Positions 5,315 to 26,154 of a stretch of DNA of 64,000 bases are shown here, in pieces. The notes beneath the pieces are model-generated. The model worked only from the letters and a program-made list of their open reading frames with translations. It was not told where the DNA came from and did not search any database. Positions within the stretch are counted from its first letter, which is position 1. Every line of letters starts with the position of its first letter. The position numbers and the translations under genes were made by a program. The DNA is taken from contig JAHLVW010000045.1 of NCBI GenBank assembly GCA_019058275.1, positions 1 through 64,000 of the forward strand, read 5' to 3'. The DNA is from Candidatus Heimdallarchaeota archaeon (GTDB taxonomy: Archaea; Asgardarchaeota; Heimdallarchaeia; JABLTI01).

Positions 5315-6733
5315 TTGCCAAAAAACGAATTAGAGAAAGCATTGGAACAAGTAAGACAAATAACGAAACCTCAAATAAAGAAAAGACCACTGCAACTAAC
5401 CACAAAAGTAAAGATCGTTCCCACAAAAGAACAAGAAGAAATCTTGTGGGTATTATCAGAAAACTGTCGGTTAATTCATTACTTTGCAAATAAAGAACGA
5501 AAAGAATGGTGGGACAAAAACAAACACTTGCCAAAGAAGAAAAGAGACAAAGAAAACAAATCAACCTATAACAAACAATCAGCACAATTACCAAAACTAA
5601 AAGAAAAATACTCTCGCTATAAACAAAATTACTCCAAAACACTACAAGACATTCTTAAACAATTAGAAGCTGATTACAAATCGTTTCATGCTCTCAGAAA
5701 AAGTGGCGATAATAACGCACAACCACCAAAATACAAATCGAAGGAATATTTCACAACAATGCATTATAATCAAAGCGGTTTCAAAATAGAAGGAACAAAA
5801 ATAACCTTGAGTCATTTCTATCCTACAAGAGAAACAAAAGAGGTAGACCTTACTTTTGAAATGCAAGGAAAATTCACTTTCACCGGTAAGAAAGTGAAAC
5901 AAGTAACAATCTATCGAGTACACAAAACAAAAGAATTCTACTTGTCGATCATTTACGAACAAAACACACCAGAGTATTTCGACAATGGTATTTATCAGAC
6001 AATAGACCTCGGACTAATAAATCTCGTTGCAGCAGTGAACAGTCATGAAGGTAAAACAATAACCATCAAGAACAAACGAGTAGATAAATACTGGCAACCA
6101 AAAATAGAGGAAGTGCAAAAGAAAAGAGATCATTACAAAAAATATTCTAATCGTTGGAAATGGTACAATGATAAAATGTGGAAAATGATCAGGAAACAAG
6201 CAAACCAAAGAAAAGATTTCCAACACAAAGTAAGCAAAAAAGTCGTCGAGAACACCAGAGCAAACATCATAATCATTGGTGATTTGAATGTTAAAGAAAT
6301 GAGTAAAAGCAAGAAAAATGATAAGAAGAAAGATAAAAGTCTTCACCGAAACATGCAAAGTAGTGGCTCATTAGGTCGCTTTGCTAGATTCTTAACCTAC
6401 AAAGCTCAACTTGCAGGTAAAAAAGTAATAAGGATCAGTGAACGAGGAACAAGTAAAAGATGCTGCTACTGTATGAAGAAGGAGAACAGAAAACTCTCCG
6501 AAAGAACTATTCAGTGTGATTGTGGGTTTGTAATAGATCGAGATACAAGTGGTACAGCTAATCTCATGCAAAGACTCCTCGCTCTCCTAGCACTATCACA
6601 AAAACGCCTTGTGGTCAGGCAACGACTCTTGAAAGATTTTCGAGAGAAGTTTTTTAGCGACACACAGCCAAACGTAAAACGAAAGTTCCTCCTCAACAGG
6701 AGTTGTGCGGACTCGCAGGGAATCACAAGTTAA
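5315..6733 (+). CDS. tnpB: IS200/IS605-family TnpB RNA-guided nuclease
   Basis: N-terminal KIVPTKEQEEIL HTH; RuvC-I IDLG; IIIGDLNVKEM; SERGTSKRCCYC and CDCG Zn finger; DRD RuvC-III. Confidence 0.9.
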   Translation: MPKNELEKALEQVRQITKPQIKKRPLQLTTKVKIVPTKEQEEILWVLSENCRLIHYFANKERKEWWDKNKHLPKKKRDKENKSTYNKQSAQLPKLKEKYSRYKQNYSKTLQDILKQLEADYKSFHALRKSGDNNAQPPKYKSKEYFTTMHYNQSGFKIEGTKITLSHFYPTRETKEVDLTFEMQGKFTFTGKKVKQVTIYRVHKTKEFYLSIIYEQNTPEYFDNGIYQTIDLGLINLVAAVNSHEGKTITIKNKRVDKYWQPKIEEVQKKRDHYKKYSNRWKWYNDKMWKMIRKQANQRKDFQHKVSKKVVENTRANIIIIGDLNVKEMSKSKKNDKKKDKSLHRNMQSSGSLGRFARFLTYKAQLAGKKVIRISERGTSKRCCYCMKKENRKLSERTIQCDCGFVIDRDTSGTANLMQRLLALLALSQKRLVVRQRLLKDFREKFFSDTQPNVKRKFLLNRSCADSQGITS

Positions 6734-7014: not shown

Positions 7015-10000
7015 TTGGATTGTATGGATGGAAAAGCAAAATTATTCCAGAAAATTACCTTAGAAAACCTAATGCTTCATGAAAATACTAAGGTAGATTT
7101 AGCAAAAGAAGCAATCACACTAATCACTGGAGCAAATGGGTCAGGTAAAACACAAGTGTTAGATGGGATTGTTATCTGTTTAGGTTACATACCAACAAGA
7201 GCAAAAGCAAAGGGGGTAGGAAGCTTAGTTGGTAAAATGGGTGAATTTGCTAAGGTAACACTAGAAGTAGCTAATCCAATAGTTAATGGAAAAAGATCTA
7301 TCTACACAATGGATCAAGATTTAAATTCAGTAATTAATTTTAATTCGTTTAATATAACAGCAAAAATATCTCAACAAGATAGTTCAATTACCTTCTACAT
7401 CAATAATTCAAGAAGAATTGTACGTGGAAGATTGGTTACAAGAAGAGATATTAGAAGAATTTTTGATACAATTGGTGTCCGTGGAGATAATAAATTAGCA
7501 TTTACAGGTGAGGGAACAGTAGATGAATTTGCTTCTAAAAGTCCAAAAAGAAAACTAGATGTTTTGTTAGAAGTAACAGGTTTGAAGCAGTACCGTGAAG
7601 AAGTCATTGCTGCACAGGAAACTCTTAAAGCTAGTATCCAAGAAATCGAACCACTAAAACGCAAGTTTGAAACAGAGAGTAAGCTTTTGAATATATGGAA
7701 CGATGCTATGAAAATCTTGAACCAAAAGAAGAAACTAATGATACTGAAGATCAAACTAGAAACAGAACTTGCTTGGTCATTTGTGAAGCGTTATGAAAAA
7801 CAATTGGAAGGGATCAATAAACAACGATTGACAATATTAAAACAAAAGAACGAAAATGAAGAAAATATAAGCAGGAAGGAAGATGAAATATCTTTAACAA
7901 AACGAAAGCTTCGAGCTCTTAATGAAGAATTACAATTAATTGAAGAACATGAACGAGTAAAAAATAGGCAGTTAATAACAGCAGAAACTCAACTAAGTTA
8001 TGAAGGAGAGAATATTAAGAATTTTAGAAAGGAAATTGATCGCTATCTCAAGCAAAAGGAAAGCATGGAGAGAATAATAGCAACTAAAGATTTGAGTGAA
8101 AAAGATAGAAAACTGCAAGACAAGCAAGAAGCTCTAGCAGTGAAAACAAAGAAACTATCAATGATGCAAGAGAAATATTCCAAAGCAGAAAAGGAACTAG
8201 AAATCTTAAGAAGGAAGATAGTAGTTGAACCAAATTTTGACTCCTTTGTATCTGATGAGGATGTATATTCAGGTAAACGTTTAACTAAATATGAAGAGGA
8301 TTTAGCAAATTCAGCAAAGATATTTTATCAAAAAATTAGAAGACAATCTTTTGATAAGGAAATTATTGGTCCAATTATATCACTTATTGATGTTAAAGAA
8401 GGAAAAGAAGGTTGGGCAAAAGCTGTAAAGAATCTTATTGGTCGTAACCTCTATGCCTTCTTAGCTAAAACAAATGAATCTTATAGGTTTGCAAAACGAT
8501 TGTATGATGAAACTTGGCCAAGATGGAAACCACCATTAACTGTTTACAGAGTATCAACAGAAGATGCGAAAACAGCAAATGAAAACAAGAAAACCCCCCC
8601 TTACAAGGAAATCCATGATTTGGTAAGTAATCTTATAACAGGAAATCCATATGCAGTTGGATTTCTAAAAAGAGTTGTTAAAGGGGGAGTTACTGAGGAT
8701 AAATATGATCCAAATATCTTAACGAACATTGCTAAAGATAGCAAGATAAACATACTAACAAAATCTGGAAAAAGCTTCTATTTATCTCAAGGTGGTTTTG
8801 GTCGACCACCAGCACCAATGAAGAATTCATTTGGGTGGAAAATTAAAATAATAGATGAAAAAGCGTTATCGACCAGTTTTGATGAAAGAAAAACCAGAGT
8901 AGCTATTGCTAGATTAGAAAGAGACACTCGTGACTTAAAAGTTGATGAAATAAAAACGCTAACAGAAATCTCTAAGTTACATCAAGAGATACAATCACTG
9001 GGAATGCCTGATGAGAAGATTATAGGGAAGATTGAAACCATAAATGAAATTATAGCAGTTATTGAAGCAAAAGCCAAAGAGTGCAAAATACATCAAAATG
9101 CGTTAAAACTTGAATTAGATGAAGTTTCAGATCGTTTCAGTGAGTATGTTATAAAGAAGGGAGACGTTAAAAACAGAATCAATGAAGTCCAAGAAACCTC
9201 TGATTTACTGAAATTAGAACTACATAGTTTACGTGAAAAATCAACAAGACTGCTAACTCTCGAGATTAATTATGATTCTGAATACGAAAACGTCTTACAA
9301 GAAATGAAGGAAAGAGAGGAAATTGCTAAGCAAAAAGGAGAGCGTCCAGAAGAAATTCGTAGCTATTCAGAAATTAGAGATGAATTAAGCAGAATTGAAG
9401 GGCATTTGGAATCTATAGGAATAAGCAATGTTGACGAAGAAAAAATCCAAGCTCAGAAAGTAAAGGTTGAATCACTACAAACATACATGGAAGAAAGAGA
9501 AGAACATATTACTAATTTAAGAGCTGATTTAGAAGCAAGATTAGCATTTTGGAATGGCGAATTACAAGAAGTAATAACAAACATTTCTAAATCAATGAAA
9601 TTGCTTCTTGGCGGAATTTTTGAAAAGACAAGGCTAAAAGTAACTAACATAAACAAACCAGATGAAGCTGGTTTGTATATTGAAGCAATCACGAAAGGAA
9701 AAGCTTATCGTGATTTCCGTGAGTTAAGTGGGGGCGAGAAAGTTCTTGCCATAGAAGGATTAATTCTAGCAATGCACACTTTAACTGATTCTCCAATACA
9801 TGCAATAGATGAATTTACACAAAGATTAGATGAGAAAAATAAAGCTCTAGCTTTTAGCATTGCTATAAGAACACAAAAACTTACAAGTGAAAATTCACGA
9901 TTTTTACCTCAATTCATACTTTTATGTCCTGATGCTTTAGATGTTGAATTATCAAATAATATCCATCATATGGTTGTTTCAGAAATGATGGTGGTGAAAG

Positions 10001-10020
10001 CAGAATATGTTAGACGATAA
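7015..10020 (+). CDS. SMC5/6-like ATPase (likely start ATG 7024)
   Basis: Walker A GANGSGKT; two coiled coils flanking a hinge (IIGPIISLIDVK..WAKAVKNLIGRNLYAF); LSGGEK signature; Walker B/D-loop AIDEFTQRLDEKN; QFILLCP in place of the His switch, as in Smc5/6. Confidence 0.85.
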   Translation: MDCMDGKAKLFQKITLENLMLHENTKVDLAKEAITLITGANGSGKTQVLDGIVICLGYIPTRAKAKGVGSLVGKMGEFAKVTLEVANPIVNGKRSIYTMDQDLNSVINFNSFNITAKISQQDSSITFYINNSRRIVRGRLVTRRDIRRIFDTIGVRGDNKLAFTGEGTVDEFASKSPKRKLDVLLEVTGLKQYREEVIAAQETLKASIQEIEPLKRKFETESKLLNIWNDAMKILNQKKKLMILKIKLETELAWSFVKRYEKQLEGINKQRLTILKQKNENEENISRKEDEISLTKRKLRALNEELQLIEEHERVKNRQLITAETQLSYEGENIKNFRKEIDRYLKQKESMERIIATKDLSEKDRKLQDKQEALAVKTKKLSMMQEKYSKAEKELEILRRKIVVEPNFDSFVSDEDVYSGKRLTKYEEDLANSAKIFYQKIRRQSFDKEIIGPIISLIDVKEGKEGWAKAVKNLIGRNLYAFLAKTNESYRFAKRLYDETWPRWKPPLTVYRVSTEDAKTANENKKTPPYKEIHDLVSNLITGNPYAVGFLKRVVKGGVTEDKYDPNILTNIAKDSKINILTKSGKSFYLSQGGFGRPPAPMKNSFGWKIKIIDEKALSTSFDERKTRVAIARLERDTRDLKVDEIKTLTEISKLHQEIQSLGMPDEKIIGKIETINEIIAVIEAKAKECKIHQNALKLELDEVSDRFSEYVIKKGDVKNRINEVQETSDLLKLELHSLREKSTRLLTLEINYDSEYENVLQEMKEREEIAKQKGERPEEIRSYSEIRDELSRIEGHLESIGISNVDEEKIQAQKVKVESLQTYMEEREEHITNLRADLEARLAFWNGELQEVITNISKSMKLLLGGIFEKTRLKVTNINKPDEAGLYIEAITKGKAYRDFRELSGGEKVLAIEGLILAMHTLTDSPIHAIDEFTQRLDEKNKALAFSIAIRTQKLTSENSRFLPQFILLCPDALDVELSNNIHHMVVSEMMVVKAEYVRR

Positions 10021-10855
10021 TAATGATATTGAAATCGAAATAACTTCAACAGATCTAATTATTGATAATAAAAAAGATGAGTCTATAGATAAGCAAAAAC
10101 CACCAAAAAAACCGGAAAAGAAGAAACAATCACAAAAAGATAGTGTTGAGAAATTATTGTGGAATGTTGCAAAGAAATACAAAACACTTTTGGATAAAGG
10201 AATTGTACCACAGATTTCTGAAAGTGAAGAAGATAGAATAGAGGTTTCGGATGCATATCAAGAAATTGAAAACAAGAGACATAGACAACTCGATGCTAGA
10301 GTCTATCAATCTCTTACGAAAATGCAAAAAACAAGAGATTCAAAAATCGCTCTAGAAGGAACAACTGAAAGAGACCGATTAAGAATGATTGCTTGGGAGG
10401 TTAAGATCAGAACGCAAGCAATTGTATTCTTTCCAGGTGATAGTACTCTTGATATGAACATGTTTAATGCTTATGATCACACTGGAATTCAGATAATTGA
10501 AGGTGATGAGAAGGAAATTCTCATTGAAGATGATATAATAGAAAATAAGGGAATTGCAATTCTAGAATCATTACCATTACGAAAACTAACAAAAGAACAG
10601 AAGGGAAAATTGAAGCAAGAATTCTTGAAGAAATTTCGTGGAAAACGATTTAAAATTACTGAATTGGAAAACAAAATTGACAGCATATCTGCTGATTTAA
10701 TTTCATTACTAGTTAGAGAAAAACAGATACTGCTTCTAAAGAGAGAACAAAATATTGTAGAAATAATGGCTTATCCAGACAAGCTAACTGAATTTAAAGA
10801 ATCAGATCTTTTAAGTCGATCTATAGTACTAACTCCTAAAAAAACAAAAAATTAG
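10007..10855 (+). CDS. Putative kleisin (Nse4/ScpA-like)
   Basis: Overlaps the SMC stop. N-terminal helical region KKYKTLL…AYQEIENKRHRQLDARVY is reminiscent of Nse4; acidic linker; C-terminal WH-like LISLLVREKQILLL. Confidence 0.5.
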   Translation: MLDDNNDIEIEITSTDLIIDNKKDESIDKQKPPKKPEKKKQSQKDSVEKLLWNVAKKYKTLLDKGIVPQISESEEDRIEVSDAYQEIENKRHRQLDARVYQSLTKMQKTRDSKIALEGTTERDRLRMIAWEVKIRTQAIVFFPGDSTLDMNMFNAYDHTGIQIIEGDEKEILIEDDIIENKGIAILESLPLRKLTKEQKGKLKQEFLKKFRGKRFKITELENKIDSISADLISLLVREKQILLLKREQNIVEIMAYPDKLTEFKESDLLSRSIVLTPKKTKN

Positions 10856-13671: not shown

Positions 13672-13983
13672 ATGAGCGAAGAAATATGGCGTGAAATTAT
13701 AATCGACGTTGAGCCAAGACAAAAAGAGTTTAGAGTAGCAGTTGAAGAAGAATCAACAATTGACGAAGTAGTGAAAACCCTAGTACAACGATGTGTTGAT
13801 GAAGGGGTTGACATAAACAAATGGGCTAAAGAAAAGGTAGGACAACCAAATGTTAGCTTTATACTCATGCGTAAAATGACAGGAAATACAGCCTTACCAC
13901 CAGCCACAACATTTGGTTCATTGGAACCAACACTAGAATCAAATGAACGATTCAAATTAGATGCTTGTGCTCAAGTAGGATAA
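13672..13983 (+). CDS. Ubiquitin-like beta-grasp protein
   Basis: 103 aa, between E1 and E2, beta-beta-alpha pattern (STIDEVVKTL), C-terminus …LDACAQVG. Confidence 0.75.
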   Translation: MSEEIWREIIIDVEPRQKEFRVAVEEESTIDEVVKTLVQRCVDEGVDINKWAKEKVGQPNVSFILMRKMTGNTALPPATTFGSLEPTLESNERFKLDACAQVG

Positions 13984-14088
13984 GAATCTTGAATTTGAGT
14001 GGGATGGAAGAATACAAAGTAAAATTATGTATTTAACCTCATCCCCCGCTTATTATTTCCAAATAAAGAGAAGAAAAGGTGAAAAAAA

Positions 14089-14844
14089 ATTTCCAGGACA
14101 AACTTTCCTGCAACGGTAGTAAATGCAAGAATTGCTGAATCTATTTCAGTATTTTATGATTCAATGGAGGAATTCTTCAAGAAAAAAGAATGGAAATGGA
14201 CTCCAATTAGAAGAACAGGTGACAAATGGATTCAGGAAGACTATTCAGTTGAAATAAGGGGTAGATACAAAGACGGTGCATATAGAGACATATTATTCTC
14301 AATAAGAAGAACACCGGGCTTAACTGGACAATCAAACAATAGAAATCATCTAAATGTGGGATTTGAACATAAATTCTCAATATACTTACCAAGGGAATAC
14401 CCCGCAAACCTTTCTCATATCAAAATGAGAGCTGTGACTAATTTATGGCATCCTAGGATTTCTATGGGAAGACATGGTGAAGCTTGCATTACAGTTAATG
14501 GTGAAGTAGATAGAATACTAGTTGACATTTTATATCATATACTAATGGATCCTAAAAGAATACGACCACCAAAACTGTATCCTAAAGAGGATTCAGGAAT
14601 GAATACTATGGCTATGCGTTGGTTTGAAAAGGATGCAAATAACGTCCATAATATGATGCAAGCAAAATGGGATTCAGTTCATGATAAAGCTTCTATTAAA
14701 GAAAGTGGTGGAATAAAAATCATTGATGGCGAAAAGCAAGAGAAAATGAAAACAGAAGACGAAAGAAGAACAATTCGAATAATGCCTCGAGAAGAGAAGA
14801 AAGAAGACAAAAAGGAAAAGAAAGGAGGTGTTAGAATCATATGA
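14089..14844 (+). CDS. E2 ubiquitin-conjugating enzyme-like protein with low-complexity tail (track start 14164; probable ATT start 14089)
   Basis: LPREYP and LWHPRI…GEAC (catalytic Cys). Frame is open back to 14083, with RBS GGTGA at 14078-14082. Confidence 0.8.
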   Translation: MSRTNFPATVVNARIAESISVFYDSMEEFFKKKEWKWTPIRRTGDKWIQEDYSVEIRGRYKDGAYRDILFSIRRTPGLTGQSNNRNHLNVGFEHKFSIYLPREYPANLSHIKMRAVTNLWHPRISMGRHGEACITVNGEVDRILVDILYHILMDPKRIRPPKLYPKEDSGMNTMAMRWFEKDANNVHNMMQAKWDSVHDKASIKESGGIKIIDGEKQEKMKTEDERRTIRIMPREEKKEDKKEKKGGVRII

Positions 14845-15137
14845 AACAAAAGAAGACTGAGCTAAGTAAAGAGGAATCATTGGATTTTGCATATGAGGTT
14901 AGCTCCTTAAGTAATGATGAGGAAACAATTGATGAAATATTCCGAGAGAATGATTTAATGGAGGAATTTGAAGAGGAAGTTGAAAAACCAAGTACAATAA
15001 AAATCATCTCTGAACGAGCTATGGAAATAAAAAAAGTTCCTCCACCAAACTATTCACCTTATTTTAGATGTATTCTACATTTCAGAGGAAAGAATATCAC
15101 AAAAAGAAAATTGCTGAAAACTGAAGGACAACATTAG
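14841..15137 (+). CDS. Small acidic/basic hypothetical protein, last gene of the SMC-Ubl operon
   Basis: ATGA overlap with E2; GGAGGTG RBS upstream. Confidence 0.65.
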   Translation: MKQKKTELSKEESLDFAYEVSSLSNDEETIDEIFRENDLMEEFEEEVEKPSTIKIISERAMEIKKVPPPNYSPYFRCILHFRGKNITKRKLLKTEGQH

Positions 15138-15289
15138 GCATCTAATTCTTATTTTTGTTGAATTTTTATCTTATACTTTCCAAAGATTCAAAAATCAATT
15201 GTTTTCATCATTTATATCTGAGTAAAGATAAAAGAGATTTAAACCGATATAAGAACGTGAAAATCGATTATTATAGGAAGTTGATAATT

Positions 15290-17011
15290 TTGCCAAATGA
15301 AGTAATACTTGATGAAGCTGGTCTATCATTTGAAGATGTATACAATATCGTGAAAAAGAATTACCACTTGAAGTTATCTGATGCTGTGAAAAAGAAAGTA
15401 AAACTAGCAAGAAAAGCAATAGAAAAAGCAGTTGAATCAGGTCAGAAAATTTATGGTATTACTACTGGTTTTGGCGCATTAAGAAATATAATCATTCCTG
15501 AAAAGGATGCTGCAAAATTACAAACAAACCTAATACGAAGTCATTCTGTTGGAGTTGGGAATCCTGCTCGAGACGATTATGTAAAAGCAATGATGGTACT
15601 AAGAGTTACAGCTCTTGCTCGAGGGCATTCTGGATGTCAGTTAAAAACGTTAAACAATCTTATTCAAATGATTAACAAAAACACATTGCCAATTATCCCC
15701 TTAAAGGGCTCAGTTGGTGCTAGTGGTGATCTTGCACAATTGTCTCATATGGCACTTGCAATGATTGGCGAGGGTAAAGAGAATCTAAAAATTAATGGTA
15801 AGATATTTGACGCTAAAGATGGTTTGGAAAAAGCTGGTATCCCAATAACAAAACTATCATACAAGGAAGGATTAGCATTGAATAATGGTGCTCAATTCTC
15901 TGCTGGAATAGCTTGTATGGTTTTACATGACGCTCATAATTTATTTAAGAATGCCGAAGTTGCTACTGCTTTGTCTATGGAAGCTTTGAAAGCAGCTTAT
16001 CAGCAGTTTGATGATAGAATTCATCAAGCGAGAAATCATCCGGGACAAATTGATGTAGCAAAAAAAGTTCGCGAACTTACAGAAGATAGTATTTTTGTAA
16101 AGTTGCATGAGAGTCTTTTCACATGTAAAACTGAAAACTGCGGATATTATTATGATAAACAACAAGGAGATTCCACACAGAACATTCCACCAAACACTGA
16201 GTTTGTCAATATATCAACTGGTTGGACATGCCCAAACTGTGGAGGTCTCAAAAATAATTTTGAGAAACAATGGCCGAAAATACAAGATGATTATTCAATA
16301 AGATGCACTCCACAAGTATTAGGTCCTGCAAAAGAGACCTTGGAATTCGTTAAAAGTATTATTAGTCGAGAAATTAACGCTGCTACTGATAATCCATTGA
16401 TCTTCATTATTAAAGAAGACCCCTTAGAGTTTGACATTTATTCTGGAGGGAATTTCCATGGAGAACCAATAGCAATGACAATGGATTATTTGTCTATAGC
16501 AATGGCTGAAGTAGGTAACATTGCTGAGAGAAGATGTGCGAAGCTAATTGATGATAAAAGAAATGATGGTTTGAGCCTCTTTTTAATTCCAAGGAGTGAA
16601 CTGGGACTAAACAGTGGTTATATGATGCCACAATATACTGCTGCTGCTCTAGTGTCAGAGAATAAAGTAATGGCAACCCCAGCATCAGTTGACTCTATAC
16701 CAACATCAGATGAAGCAGAGGATCATGTCAGTATGAGCCCAATAGCTGCAAGAAAAACTGCCACAATACTAGAAAATCTCCAATACATCTTAGCAATTGA
16801 AATGATGCTAGCTGTTCAAGCAATTGATTTACGATGTGAAATACAGAAAATCCCTCCAGAAAAAGCTTTAGGAAAACAAACATACAAGGCATATAAAACC
16901 ATTAGGTCAGCTGTACCAAAATTGGTTCAAGATAGGATAATCTATCCAGATATCAATAAAATTGCTGAACTAATAAGATCTGGAAGTATTGTTTCAAAAC
17001 TTAAACATTGA
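15290..17011 (+). CDS. hutH: Histidine ammonia-lyase with inserted rubredoxin domain (track start 15155; likely TTG 15290)
   Basis: YGITTGFG, LIRSH, MIO motif GSVGASGDL, QDDYSIRC, GGNFHG, EDHVSM. Confidence 0.9.
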   Translation: MPNEVILDEAGLSFEDVYNIVKKNYHLKLSDAVKKKVKLARKAIEKAVESGQKIYGITTGFGALRNIIIPEKDAAKLQTNLIRSHSVGVGNPARDDYVKAMMVLRVTALARGHSGCQLKTLNNLIQMINKNTLPIIPLKGSVGASGDLAQLSHMALAMIGEGKENLKINGKIFDAKDGLEKAGIPITKLSYKEGLALNNGAQFSAGIACMVLHDAHNLFKNAEVATALSMEALKAAYQQFDDRIHQARNHPGQIDVAKKVRELTEDSIFVKLHESLFTCKTENCGYYYDKQQGDSTQNIPPNTEFVNISTGWTCPNCGGLKNNFEKQWPKIQDDYSIRCTPQVLGPAKETLEFVKSIISREINAATDNPLIFIIKEDPLEFDIYSGGNFHGEPIAMTMDYLSIAMAEVGNIAERRCAKLIDDKRNDGLSLFLIPRSELGLNSGYMMPQYTAAALVSENKVMATPASVDSIPTSDEAEDHVSMSPIAARKTATILENLQYILAIEMMLAVQAIDLRCEIQKIPPEKALGKQTYKAYKTIRSAVPKLVQDRIIYPDINKIAELIRSGSIVSKLKH

Positions 17012-24001: not shown

Positions 24002-24400
24002 ATGTTACCAAGATTATTAAACAAAGTTGTAGATGCTTCTTACTACAAACTATGCGGTGAAAAAATGGTTAATTTACGAACTGAAAATATCCGATGTATA
24101 CTTTGCAATAAACAGCTAAGCTTATTCTTGAATAGTAATAATGAACTATTCATCTGCTCAGTATGTCAAGCCTATTTTTGCCCTGAATGTTTGGATGCAA
24201 TTAAGAACTACCAGCTTTGTCCAGCTGCAAGATTATTAGGAGCCAATGAACACGAGCTAAAATTCCTAAAAATGCTTCCATCAAGACCTTTGGAAACGAG
24301 AAGACAAATTGTTCAAAATAATCAGAGTGAAACTGTAAAGATTCTACCTAAGAAAACAGTTAGGATTTTGGACACGAAAAAGAAAACAGACAAAAAGTAA
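24002..24400 (+). CDS. RING-like Zn-finger protein, paralog of 11524..12009 (start probably 24065)
   Basis: CILC…CSVC-x4-CPEC…CP…G…HEL. Confidence 0.65.
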   Translation: MLPRLLNKVVDASYYKLCGEKMVNLRTENIRCILCNKQLSLFLNSNNELFICSVCQAYFCPECLDAIKNYQLCPAARLLGANEHELKFLKMLPSRPLETRRQIVQNNQSETVKILPKKTVRILDTKKKTDKK

Positions 24401-24426: not shown

Positions 24427-26154
24427 GTGCGGATAAATCCTTTTATTTCTACAGAAGTCGGAGATATTCCATTAAAGAATCATAATGCAATAAAAACAAA
24501 AGAAAAATTACGTTTGGTTATTACACCTCAAGATCTAGACGATGAAAAATCAAGCGTAGCCTCTGTAGAAGTTCTTAATCCTTTACAGAGAAGAGTTGTT
24601 ATTAGTAAATTACCAGAAATGGATCTTTCTAAGCTAGTATATTTTGATGTAGTTATTCCTGATAATTGGATAAATGGTAACTACACTGCGAATGTTTTAG
24701 ATATAAGTAATCGAGTGGTTTGCAAATGCTACTTCACTCTTTTTGTTAATGATTCTTTACAGACATATATTACTGAAAGAACACTAACTCCTAAATGGAG
24801 AATACACTATCGACTGAAAGTTAAGAATCCAACTACGAAACCAATTGGGAATTTCTCTGCTTTTGTAGCACTACCAATTACAATTGCCCCACAACAGATA
24901 ACAAAAGAGTTAGTTATACAACCCGAAAACCAGAAAATATCTACAGATGTAGAAGGAAACAAATGGACCCACTTTGAGTTTAAAGCAATCAATCCACTAG
25001 TAGAAAAAGAAATGGGATTCTCAGCTCTTGTCGAATGTCGACCACTTGTATTCTCAAAAGAAAGTACTAAGAATTATAAAACAAATCCTTACAGTAAGAA
25101 ATTTCTGAAAAAATACTTGGATCCTGAACCACACATAGAAAGTGATCATCCAAAAATAAGAGAGCTTGCAGCAAAAATCTCGAACAAAGATCCAATAGCT
25201 TTTGCGAAGAAAGCAGCAAACATTGTTAATAGAACTATAAAATACCAAATACAACCAGGAGAATATGGAGCGGCTTTTGCTGTAGAAAAAGGAGTTGGGG
25301 ATTGCACAGAGTTTGCTGCACTGTTTGTAGCCCTTTGCAGAGCAGAAGGAATTCCAGCGCGAACGAATGGAGGATTCACATTAGCACAGCAATGGGAAAG
25401 GCATGCTACAGCTGAATTTCTTGTCAGTGGTAGATGGATACCTATAGATGTTACAGGGCATAGTGGAAGTGACTTATTCATAGGTATTTTGCCAACAAAT
25501 ATTATTATTACAAGAGGTAATTGGATGGGTGGCACATTAGCTAAGGAAGTCTCATATAGATATCAGATTATTGAGCAAACACAAAAACTGGATGTAAACA
25601 TAGAATGGAAAATTAATTTCGAATATGGTACTGCGGTTAAGAGAACACACAAAAAATCAACACCAGATGTTAAAACAATTAAAATTCTTGAACCAAAAAT
25701 TTCTGAAACTTCGAAAATAAAAATCCTAAATGAAGAATCAATTGAGAAGAGATTAACGAGTGATAAACAAGACAGAATATCCCTACAAAAAGAAACTATT
25801 AGGTTAAAGAAGTCTGACATTATAAAAATACAAAACAAGGGAACAAGCAAAGCAATAACTATCGATATAACATTTCCAGATGTAGTTAAAGCTGGTCACA
25901 TACAAAATCAGCCTGTTACAATTCGGAATAAGACTGAATCAGTTCAAACAGGGAGTTTCGAGATTAGGTTATTGGAAAATGGTATAGTCAAATTACTATC
26001 CATTAAAGGTGTAAAAATACCTTCTAATAGTTCTCTCAAGTTTAAACCAAATATCATTATTGATAAAACTGGTTCACACATACTGGAATTTGTACTATTG
26101 AATAGAATAGGTAGAACTTTGGTAAAAGTAGAGAAAACTGTCAGTGTATACTAA
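24427..26154 (+). CDS. Transglutaminase-like protein with flanking Ig-like domains
   Basis: GDCTEFAALFVALCRAEGIPAR, HATAEF and WIPID give a Cys-His-Asp triad. Confidence 0.88.
   Translation: MRINPFISTEVGDIPLKNHNAIKTKEKLRLVITPQDLDDEKSSVASVEVLNPLQRRVVISKLPEMDLSKLVYFDVVIPDNWINGNYTANVLDISNRVVCKCYFTLFVNDSLQTYITERTLTPKWRIHYRLKVKNPTTKPIGNFSAFVALPITIAPQQITKELVIQPENQKISTDVEGNKWTHFEFKAINPLVEKEMGFSALVECRPLVFSKESTKNYKTNPYSKKFLKKYLDPEPHIESDHPKIRELAAKISNKDPIAFAKKAANIVNRTIKYQIQPGEYGAAFAVEKGVGDCTEFAALFVALCRAEGIPARTNGGFTLAQQWERHATAEFLVSGRWIPIDVTGHSGSDLFIGILPTNIIITRGNWMGGTLAKEVSYRYQIIEQTQKLDVNIEWKINFEYGTAVKRTHKKSTPDVKTIKILEPKISETSKIKILNEESIEKRLTSDKQDRISLQKETIRLKKSDIIKIQNKGTSKAITIDITFPDVVKAGHIQNQPVTIRNKTESVQTGSFEIRLLENGIVKLLSIKGVKIPSNSSLKFKPNIIIDKTGSHILEFVLLNRIGRTLVKVEKTVSVY

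Follow-up and report, generated by a model that had tools for sequence, protein, structure and literature searches.

A conserved aliphatic linear motif in an Asgard archaeal ubiquitin-like cascade, a possible counterpart of SUMO-interacting motifs

A recurrent short linear motif with the core [IV]-[KRQ]-I-[ILM], that is, hydrophobic, polar, hydrophobic, hydrophobic, accompanies a ubiquitin-like (Ubl) conjugation cascade in an Asgard archaeon (4.1-Mb assembly, 34% G+C, with near relatives labelled Heimdallarchaeota) and is very probably a real and functional element of that cascade, conserved as a short linear motif. Within the window, the whole stretch of 64,000 nucleotides analysed here, conserved copies occur in the tail of an E2-like protein, in a 98-aa small protein (p98), in a zinc-finger protein (p132) and in a transglutaminase-like protein. 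These four proteins probably dock on one partner via the motif, most likely the Ubl encoded in the same operon as E2 and p98; the Ubl is thus the leading candidate receptor, which we infer only tentatively. An earlier note on this DNA had taken the recurring strings for multivalent Ubl-docking motifs resembling SUMO-interacting motifs (SIMs). That observation is confirmed, every quoted string being present in the window where the note had placed it, save that one copy, in an SMC-like protein, is a chance instance and another, in a kleisin-like protein, is ambiguous; the SUMO-like interpretation is partly supported.

Gene organization of the locus

A single operon of co-directional genes on the + strand encodes an SMC-like ATPase (7015-10020), a kleisin-like protein (10007-10855), a winged-helix (kite) protein of 213 aa (p213), a zinc-finger protein (p161), a JAB peptidase, a ThiF-type E1, the 103-aa Ubl with Gly as its last residue (13672-13983), the E2-like protein (14164-14844) and p98 (14841-15137). 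This gene order is shared with nine other genomes of the genus. The motif-bearing p132 (24002-24400, + strand) and transglutaminase-like protein (24427-26154, + strand) had been counted among the operon proteins in the earlier note, where p132 was called a RING paralog, but both lie outside the operon, in a separate two-gene cassette 9 kb downstream. Several genes on both strands intervene, including two histidine ammonia-lyase genes, a tRNA gene and the HisRS gene. p132 has a Lys-rich tail and a weak zinc-ribbon match in Pfam, and is a paralog of p161 by a reciprocal blastp match (E 1e-3). The transglutaminase-like protein consists of a core (Pfam Transglut_core, E 9e-21), a linker and a C-terminal beta-rich domain.

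The E2-like protein scored below the cut-off against the Pfam family UQ_con (E 5.9e-4, score 19.9 against a cut-off of 27). A Foldseek search with its structure model nevertheless returned E2 enzymes for all of the best 50 PDB matches, consistent with a UBC-like core, the closest of them being E2s of the Cdc34/Ube2G type. With an HPN-type motif and a downstream Cys (H96, P97, R98 and C108 are invariant in its homologs), the protein is a divergent member of the UBC-fold E2 family. Its stop codon overlaps the start codon of p98, the overlap reading ATGA or TTGA, and in 9 of 10 genus genomes the p98 start is preceded, at a distance of 12 nt, by GGAGG or GGGGG. As read from this arrangement and from its recurrence, p98 is translationally coupled to E2 and is a conserved fourth component of the E1-Ubl-E2 module. 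Its homologs were found beside E1-Ubl-E2 genes in three unrelated contigs, in one of which (L067) E2 was not seen.

Conservation of the motif copies

The three copies that had been noticed in the E2 tail are indeed there. Residues 176-226 of E2 are predicted to be disordered (pLDDT ~29) and contain IKII after GG (motif 1, 14713-14724, + strand), IRIM (motif 2, 14773-14784, + strand) and VRII at the extreme C-terminus (motif 3, 14830-14841, + strand). All 24 archaeal E2 homologs, at 47-75% identity, have exactly three copies in register with the last at the C-terminus: motif 1 reads G-G-I-[KRQ]-I-I, motif 2 reads [TAS]-[IV]-[KRQT]-[IV]-[IM], and every one of the 24 proteins ends in G-[IV]-[KR]-I-[ILV]. 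The linkers on either side of motif 2, by contrast, vary among homologs in length as well as in sequence, and the hydrophobic motif columns have an entropy of 0.61 bits versus 2.11 bits for linker columns (Mann-Whitney P = 8e-6, a post hoc comparison). The codons of motif 3 vary synonymously among relatives, indicating that selection acts on the peptide. The Gly-Gly pair that precedes motif 3 is a different matter, because its codons contain the GGAGG (14824-14828, + strand) that is probably the ribosome-binding site of p98, so that conservation of these two residues is confounded. The usual context of the motif is Gly or Thr plus Lys before the core and Asp/Glu, Pro or a free C-terminus after it.

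p98, which has orthologs in nine genus genomes, contains a single copy, IKII followed by S-E (14997-15008, + strand), and its orthologs retain this copy in the form T-[IV]-[KR]-I-[IL]; its distant homologs have a hydrophobic strand with acidic residues at the equivalent place. In p132 the motif forms a tandem, VKIL (24335-24346) and VRIL (24359-24370) on the + strand with P-K-K-T between them, and in 33 of 33 database homologs the pair is kept, separated by Pro-Lys-Lys-x, while the flanking tail is variable. A second tandem, IKIL (25678-25689) and IKIL (25717-25728), both on the + strand, occupies the linker of the transglutaminase-like protein and is retained in 9 of the 10 other genus genomes; the match in the tenth ends before the linker. 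Sequence variability around the motif suggests that the p132 tail and the transglutaminase linker are likewise disordered. The multivalency proposed earlier is thus borne out, with three copies in E2 and two each in p132 and the transglutaminase-like protein, all in disordered or variable segments.

The two remaining copies behave differently. The IKII of the SMC-like protein (8842-8853, + strand) is present as had been reported, but four orthologs have KIKGI, KIKAS, QLKPQ or RVKTP at this place, and the copy is best taken as a chance instance. In the kleisin-like protein, IQII within G-I-Q-I-I-E-G (10487-10498, + strand) does not vary among 65 homologs; since conservation extends over the entire segment around it, the copy is not an isolated conserved island, may be part of ordinary kleisin structure and is only an uncertain member of the motif set. 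Kleisin homologs were sought in operons lacking the Ubl cascade, and all 65 matches belong to one clade. The kleisin string also recalls the GIQVD-type LC8 motif, and LC8 (dynein light chain) was therefore considered as a receptor; a genome search with PF01221 gave no match, with the controls likewise silent. In both p98 and the kleisin-like protein, the motif abuts conserved sequence and may belong to a folded interface.

The alignments also bear on the idea that the Lys of the motif is an acceptor for the Ubl, comparable to the hydrophobic-Lys-x-Glu SUMOylation site recognised by Ubc9. Many copies do read hydrophobic-Lys-Ile-Ile/Leu followed by Asp/Glu, and because some copies are on the E2 itself, automodification is conceivable. 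However, at every copy position 2 may be Lys, Arg, Gln or Thr (entropy 1.2 bits), and 17 of the 24 copies at the C-terminus have Arg there. With this free interchange and no invariant Lys, the acceptor-lysine reading is ruled out, and we reject a SUMO-type acceptor consensus as having next to no probability.

Frequency and clustering of the motif in the genome

The caveat of the earlier note that Ile and Lys are common in AT-rich proteomes was apt, because the counts by themselves are unremarkable. With the motif defined post hoc, a crude proteome of ~1.17 million residues contained 436 occurrences (0.37 per 1000 aa), whereas 0.48 per 1000 aa is expected from composition and ~552 occurrences from local shuffles; the motif is therefore not enriched genome-wide, its frequency being below both expectations. 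Two copies within 25 residues occur in 7 proteins of the genome versus 6.5 expected, and three copies within 50 residues in 1 protein, E2, versus 0.13 expected. Since overall enrichment is absent and cluster counts are about those of shuffled proteins, we dropped the frequency argument and used co-location and conservation instead. Three of the seven two-copy proteins (E2, p132 and the transglutaminase-like protein) are encoded within 12 genes, or 12 kb (simulated P = 9e-4, again post hoc), and these same three proteins account for 7 of the 62 copies with polar flanks. Frequency thus does not exceed background, but local clustering and conservation in orthologs stand out.

Chance occurrence of Ile/Lys-rich tetrapeptides would agree with a frequency at or below expectation, with the cluster counts and with the SMC copy, which is indeed a chance instance. 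It is nonetheless a very improbable account of the other copies, which are strictly conserved in 24, 33 and 9 homologs amid variable linkers, show synonymous codon variation, belong to tandem-motif proteins that are co-located, and are retained in bacterial relatives. The conservation data already disfavour it, and the high entropy of the linkers contradicts the objection that the homolog sets are too close.

A wider network of motif-bearing proteins in this genome was considered and rejected: the other copies of low hydrophobicity are in DUF460, AlaX-like, aconitase and NUDIX proteins and are attributable to chance or structure. The motif might nonetheless serve a partner encoded outside the locus, such as a chaperone or unfoldase, the proteasome, a sliding clamp or nucleic acid, or the tails might form a mutual beta-zipper. 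The tails are Lys-rich, that of p132 most of all, and short amphipathic strands could self-associate. On the other side, the distribution of the motif is bound to one genus-specific gene set, the enzymes that carry the other copies of low hydrophobicity are unrelated and give no hint of a broader network, and the E2 tail, a mixed Lys/Glu sequence of nearly balanced charge, is unsuited to DNA binding. Taken together, a partner outside the locus appears rather unlikely.

Phyletic distribution of the motif and the Ubl cascade

Searches with a profile of the Ubl and with the E2 protein detected both in 9 of 10 other genus genomes, and neither was detected in the other 31 relatives searched, whereas canonical ubiquitin (PF00240) was present in 40 of 41 genomes. 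A sister family likewise gave no match to this Ubl or E2, and nine transglutaminase homologs of the same architecture from that family had no motif, even with a relaxed pattern, and no adjacent p132 gene. The motif thus appears together with the Ubl/E2 gene set. Its distribution is that of this Ubl/E2 system, not that of the canonical ubiquitin present in the same genomes, a pattern that amounts to essentially one gain in one genus, the relatives not being independent.

The Ubl family is rare, with 31 representatives among 1.8 billion. On distant contigs, two of them from Planctomycetota MAGs and one from a metagenome (L020), the Ubl gene overlaps that of E2, and one database protein (P0042) is a fusion of Ubl and E2. 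These distant and bacterial E2s end in KKVQ[IF][LMR][DE], one of them in KKVQIRE, and the E2 tail in another distant contig has KK-x-KITFL. Two further contigs (L062 and L065) encode a tail-less E2, and here the strand is carried, with acidic residues, by the p98 homolog beside E1-Ubl-E2. Across the roughly six lineages in which both genes are readable, each module has at least one copy, carried by E2 or by its small partner. None of the distant Ubl-E2 modules had SMC, kleisin or kite genes in its vicinity, and no E1 or JAB gene adjoins the Ubl-E2 loci of Planctomycetota.

These loci weigh on the possibility that the motif docks on the SMC-kleisin-kite complex, with the E2 tail mimicking a kleisin segment and tethering E2, p132 and the transglutaminase-like protein to the kite or the SMC. 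Kite subunits bind the central part of kleisins. E2 motif 1, G-G-I-K-I-I-D-G-E, is strikingly like the kleisin G-I-Q-I-I-E-G-D-E, the kleisin segment is invariant across its 65 homologs, and the SMC-type and Ubl genes share one conserved operon. Yet the motif persists, at the E2 C-terminus or in p98, in distant modules that have no neighbouring SMC, kleisin or kite gene, which links it to the E1-Ubl-E2 core and speaks against the SMC complex being the primary receptor. Moreover, the kleisin copy is in a broadly conserved segment and not in a variable linker, and the residue that follows motif 1 in E2 orthologs is Gly where the kleisin has acidic residues. Docking on the SMC complex is therefore improbable.

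Because the shared distribution covers the whole operon and not the Ubl alone, it fits E1, the E2 core, the JAB peptidase, p161 or the SMC complex equally well. Among the components other than the Ubl, the enzymes of the cascade are the strongest contenders: the motif could dock on the minimal E1, on the core or backside of E2, on the JAB peptidase or on p161. At 310 aa, the E1 is short, consists of ThiF only and has no ubiquitin-fold domain, so that recruitment of E2 needs another handle. The minimal E1 UBA5 likewise depends on linear motifs in its tail. Across lineages, the motif follows modules of E1, Ubl and E2, any of which could be the receptor. However, tandem handles for E1 or E2 on a zinc-finger protein and a transglutaminase-like protein are hard to explain, the Planctomycetota loci lack an adjoining E1 or JAB gene, and in the structure model the E2 tail is not docked on its own core; intramolecular docking was discarded for that reason. 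Overall, we consider another cascade enzyme an unlikely receptor, although the likeliest of the alternatives to the Ubl.

The Ubl as candidate receptor

The structure model of the Ubl is a confident beta-grasp fold, and, with its C-terminal Gly and its gene beside those of E1 and E2, the protein has the features of a beta-grasp modifier. No specific relationship to SUMO was detected: there is no detectable sequence similarity to SUMO, and the fold is a generic beta-grasp. The Ubl is the most economical receptor because it is the sole component that E2, p98, the putative zinc-finger ligase and the transglutaminase-fold enzyme would all touch, and because beta-grasp modifiers, among them SUMO, ATG8 and UFM1, bind such linear motifs. 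The fit of the motif core to the published SIM definition points the same way (PMC12751080). Complex prediction with the Ubl and E2 residues 168-226 gave a score of 0.01, which is no answer either way.

We propose that each copy would turn into a beta-strand on binding and extend a beta-sheet at an exposed edge, the sheet being that of the same Ubl-cascade protein in every case. The most parsimonious partner would be the operon Ubl, through the groove between strand 2 and helix 1 that SUMO, ATG8 and UFM1 use. The copies on E2 may keep a Ubl, whether donor, backside or acceptor, near the active site, as if the SIMs of a SUMO E3 were built into the E2, and three copies on the E2 itself could play Nse2-like donor and backside roles without an E3. 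Those on p132 and the transglutaminase-like protein, putatively a ligase and an isopeptide-active enzyme, respectively, may bring these two to Ubl-carrying proteins.

A broader proposal, possible but more doubtful than the assignment of the receptor, is that the SUMO logic of reading a tag through aliphatic strand motifs already existed in a prokaryotic Ubl system that, in an Asgard archaeon, is co-operonic with SMC, kleisin and kite genes. The E2 would have three tag-docking motifs, the zinc-finger and transglutaminase-like proteins would be recruited by the same code, and the core of the Ubl and an E2 with a C-terminal motif would be shared with Planctomycetota. If this is true, motifs of the same shape on archaeal and bacterial Ubl enzymes would mean that this mode of recognition predates eukaryotes. 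The motif is also a small handle, in peptides of ~10 residues, on the wiring of an uncharacterised Ubl cascade, and even with a receptor other than the Ubl it marks E2, p98, p132 and the transglutaminase-like protein as one interaction network.

Comparison with known systems

SIMs are defined by a four-residue core with at least three Val, Leu or Ile residues, are disordered when free and are added as a beta-strand when bound, and the adjacent element, an acidic or phosphorylatable stretch facing a basic sub-site of the Ubl, is contributory but not essential (PMC12751080). Linear-motif docking on the groove of the Ubl is held to be a hallmark that separates SUMO from ubiquitin, and the SIMs of ZNF451 (PDB 5D2M) have been described in the same work (PMC12751080). 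The conserved copies reported here all read [IV]-[KRQ]-I-[ILM] or a close variant, and the E2 tail is predicted to be disordered with no docking back on the protein. The likeness to SIMs claimed in the earlier note thus stands for the hydrophobic four-residue core, which matches that definition (PMC12751080). In the flanks, the N-terminal side is mostly basic, with KK before the core, and a single Asp/Glu or a free carboxylate often follows, with no acidic run.

As in the SIMs of Nse2, ZNF451, the PIAS ligases, RanBP2 and SAE2, the motif has an aliphatic four-residue core with one tolerant polar position, is predicted to be disordered when free, is often multivalent and occurs on putative ligase, E2-associated and processing enzymes. 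It differs from them in that the candidate receptor is not a relative of SUMO, the flanks are mainly basic and not acidic or phosphorylatable, copies are found on the E2 itself, at its extreme C-terminus, and the hosts are archaea and bacteria. Because the candidate receptor is not of the SUMO family, the element is at most SIM-like in its working and not a member of the strict SIM class.

The arrangement of genes has a parallel in Nse2 of Smc5/6, in that here, too, a Ubl pathway is linked with SMC-like, kleisin-like and winged-helix genes, within one operon. In function, Nse2 is also the nearest precedent: during discharge, its two SIM-like motifs keep the donor SUMO and the backside SUMO in place, and multivalent SIMs give SUMO ligases, Nse2 on Smc5/6 among them, their organization (PMC8636563). 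SMC-kleisin-kite operons related to SMC5/6 have been described in Asgard archaea in a preprint that reports archaeal kites to lack the RING domain of Nse1 and makes no mention of linked Ubl genes or motifs (10.1101/2024.01.07.573240). In the literature searched, we found no paper containing both 'Asgard archaea' and 'SUMO-interacting motif'.

Two other enzyme tails are comparable. Like the Cdc34/Ube2G-type E2s, which use their tail for docking, the E2 has a charged and disordered C-terminal tail behind its UBC core. The Cdc34 tail is acidic and binds cullin through charge, whereas here three discrete aliphatic strand motifs are set in a mixed Lys/Glu tail. UBA5 offers the second parallel: it is a minimal ThiF-type E1 without a ubiquitin-fold domain, and its disordered tail has a strand similar to Gly-Ile-x-Leu-Val that binds the Ubl in trans, the C-terminal motif, of the LIR/UFIM type, binding UFM1 and GABARAP. 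The UBA5 motif, however, has an aromatic residue and belongs to the E1, whereas that of the Asgard system is found on E2, on a small partner and on two accessory proteins.

Genomic neighbourhood of p98

E1-Ubl-E2 modules of several unrelated lineages are accompanied by a gene of the p98 family of small proteins, which is located either after the E2 gene or between the E1 and Ubl genes. Members outside the genus were identified on three other contigs (L062:6945-7133, L065:684-926 and L067:235-444). The hallmarks of the family are a hydrophobic strand and a Pro-Pro-Asn/Ser motif, with Phe-x-Cys-x-Leu/Ile-His present in most members.

Directly downstream of p98, the window encodes a histidine ammonia-lyase (15155-17011) that is interrupted by a rubredoxin domain, an insert for which Pfam confirmation was obtained in the window gene only. 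An ammonia-lyase gene comes after p98 at each of the nine genus loci, and one does so again on contig L021 (4270-4908), where the gene is incomplete, ending at the contig end, and the E2 of the locus is only ~50% identical. The linkage of the ammonia-lyase to the Ubl operon is conserved. The opposite flank, just upstream of the operon, carries a TnpB-like ORF (5315-6733) with a zinc-ribbon pattern at its C-terminal end.

Start of the E2 gene and overlapping or fused Ubl and E2 genes

The orthologs of E2 start 27 codons upstream of the window's E2 start, at a GTG codon followed by AAA AAA ATT. The corresponding stretch of the window (14079-14092) also begins with GTG, at 14079, but eight consecutive A come next, versus seven in the orthologs. 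As a result, this GTG falls out of the E2 frame, and a TGA (14080-14082) lies in frame upstream of E2. Either the assembly is in error at this homopolymer, or the E2 start has genuinely moved to the ATG at 14164.

The Ubl ORF does not stop after V-V-G on two contigs of Planctomycetota MAGs (L031:9570-10504 and L032:4999-5924) and on a metagenome contig (L020:2-888), but reads on into a stretch with homology to the archaeal E2's N-terminal helix. On L031 and L032, the two of the three that were read completely, the Ubl and E2 ORFs overlap by 60-67 nt in different frames; the overlap in L020 is 4 nt. One database protein, P0042 (301 aa), is an uninterrupted Ubl-E2 fusion. Together with P0042, the overlapping ORFs suggest fusion proteins that would be produced by frameshifting, or recent splits. 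These loci also suggest that an Asgard genus and Planctomycetota share this rare module. A distant E1 adjoining a Ubl homolog (L066:5325-6422) contains, near its C-terminus, an insert of ~7 tandem copies of the 7-residue unit S-K-M-D-A-V-T-L/H.

Coexistence with a canonical system

Elsewhere in the window's genome than the operon, we found a canonical UBC-type E2 with the HPN motif (G000:C30:28161-28619) and a canonical ubiquitin-family gene (G000:C115:48900-49094). Therefore, at least two Ubl systems coexist in this genome.
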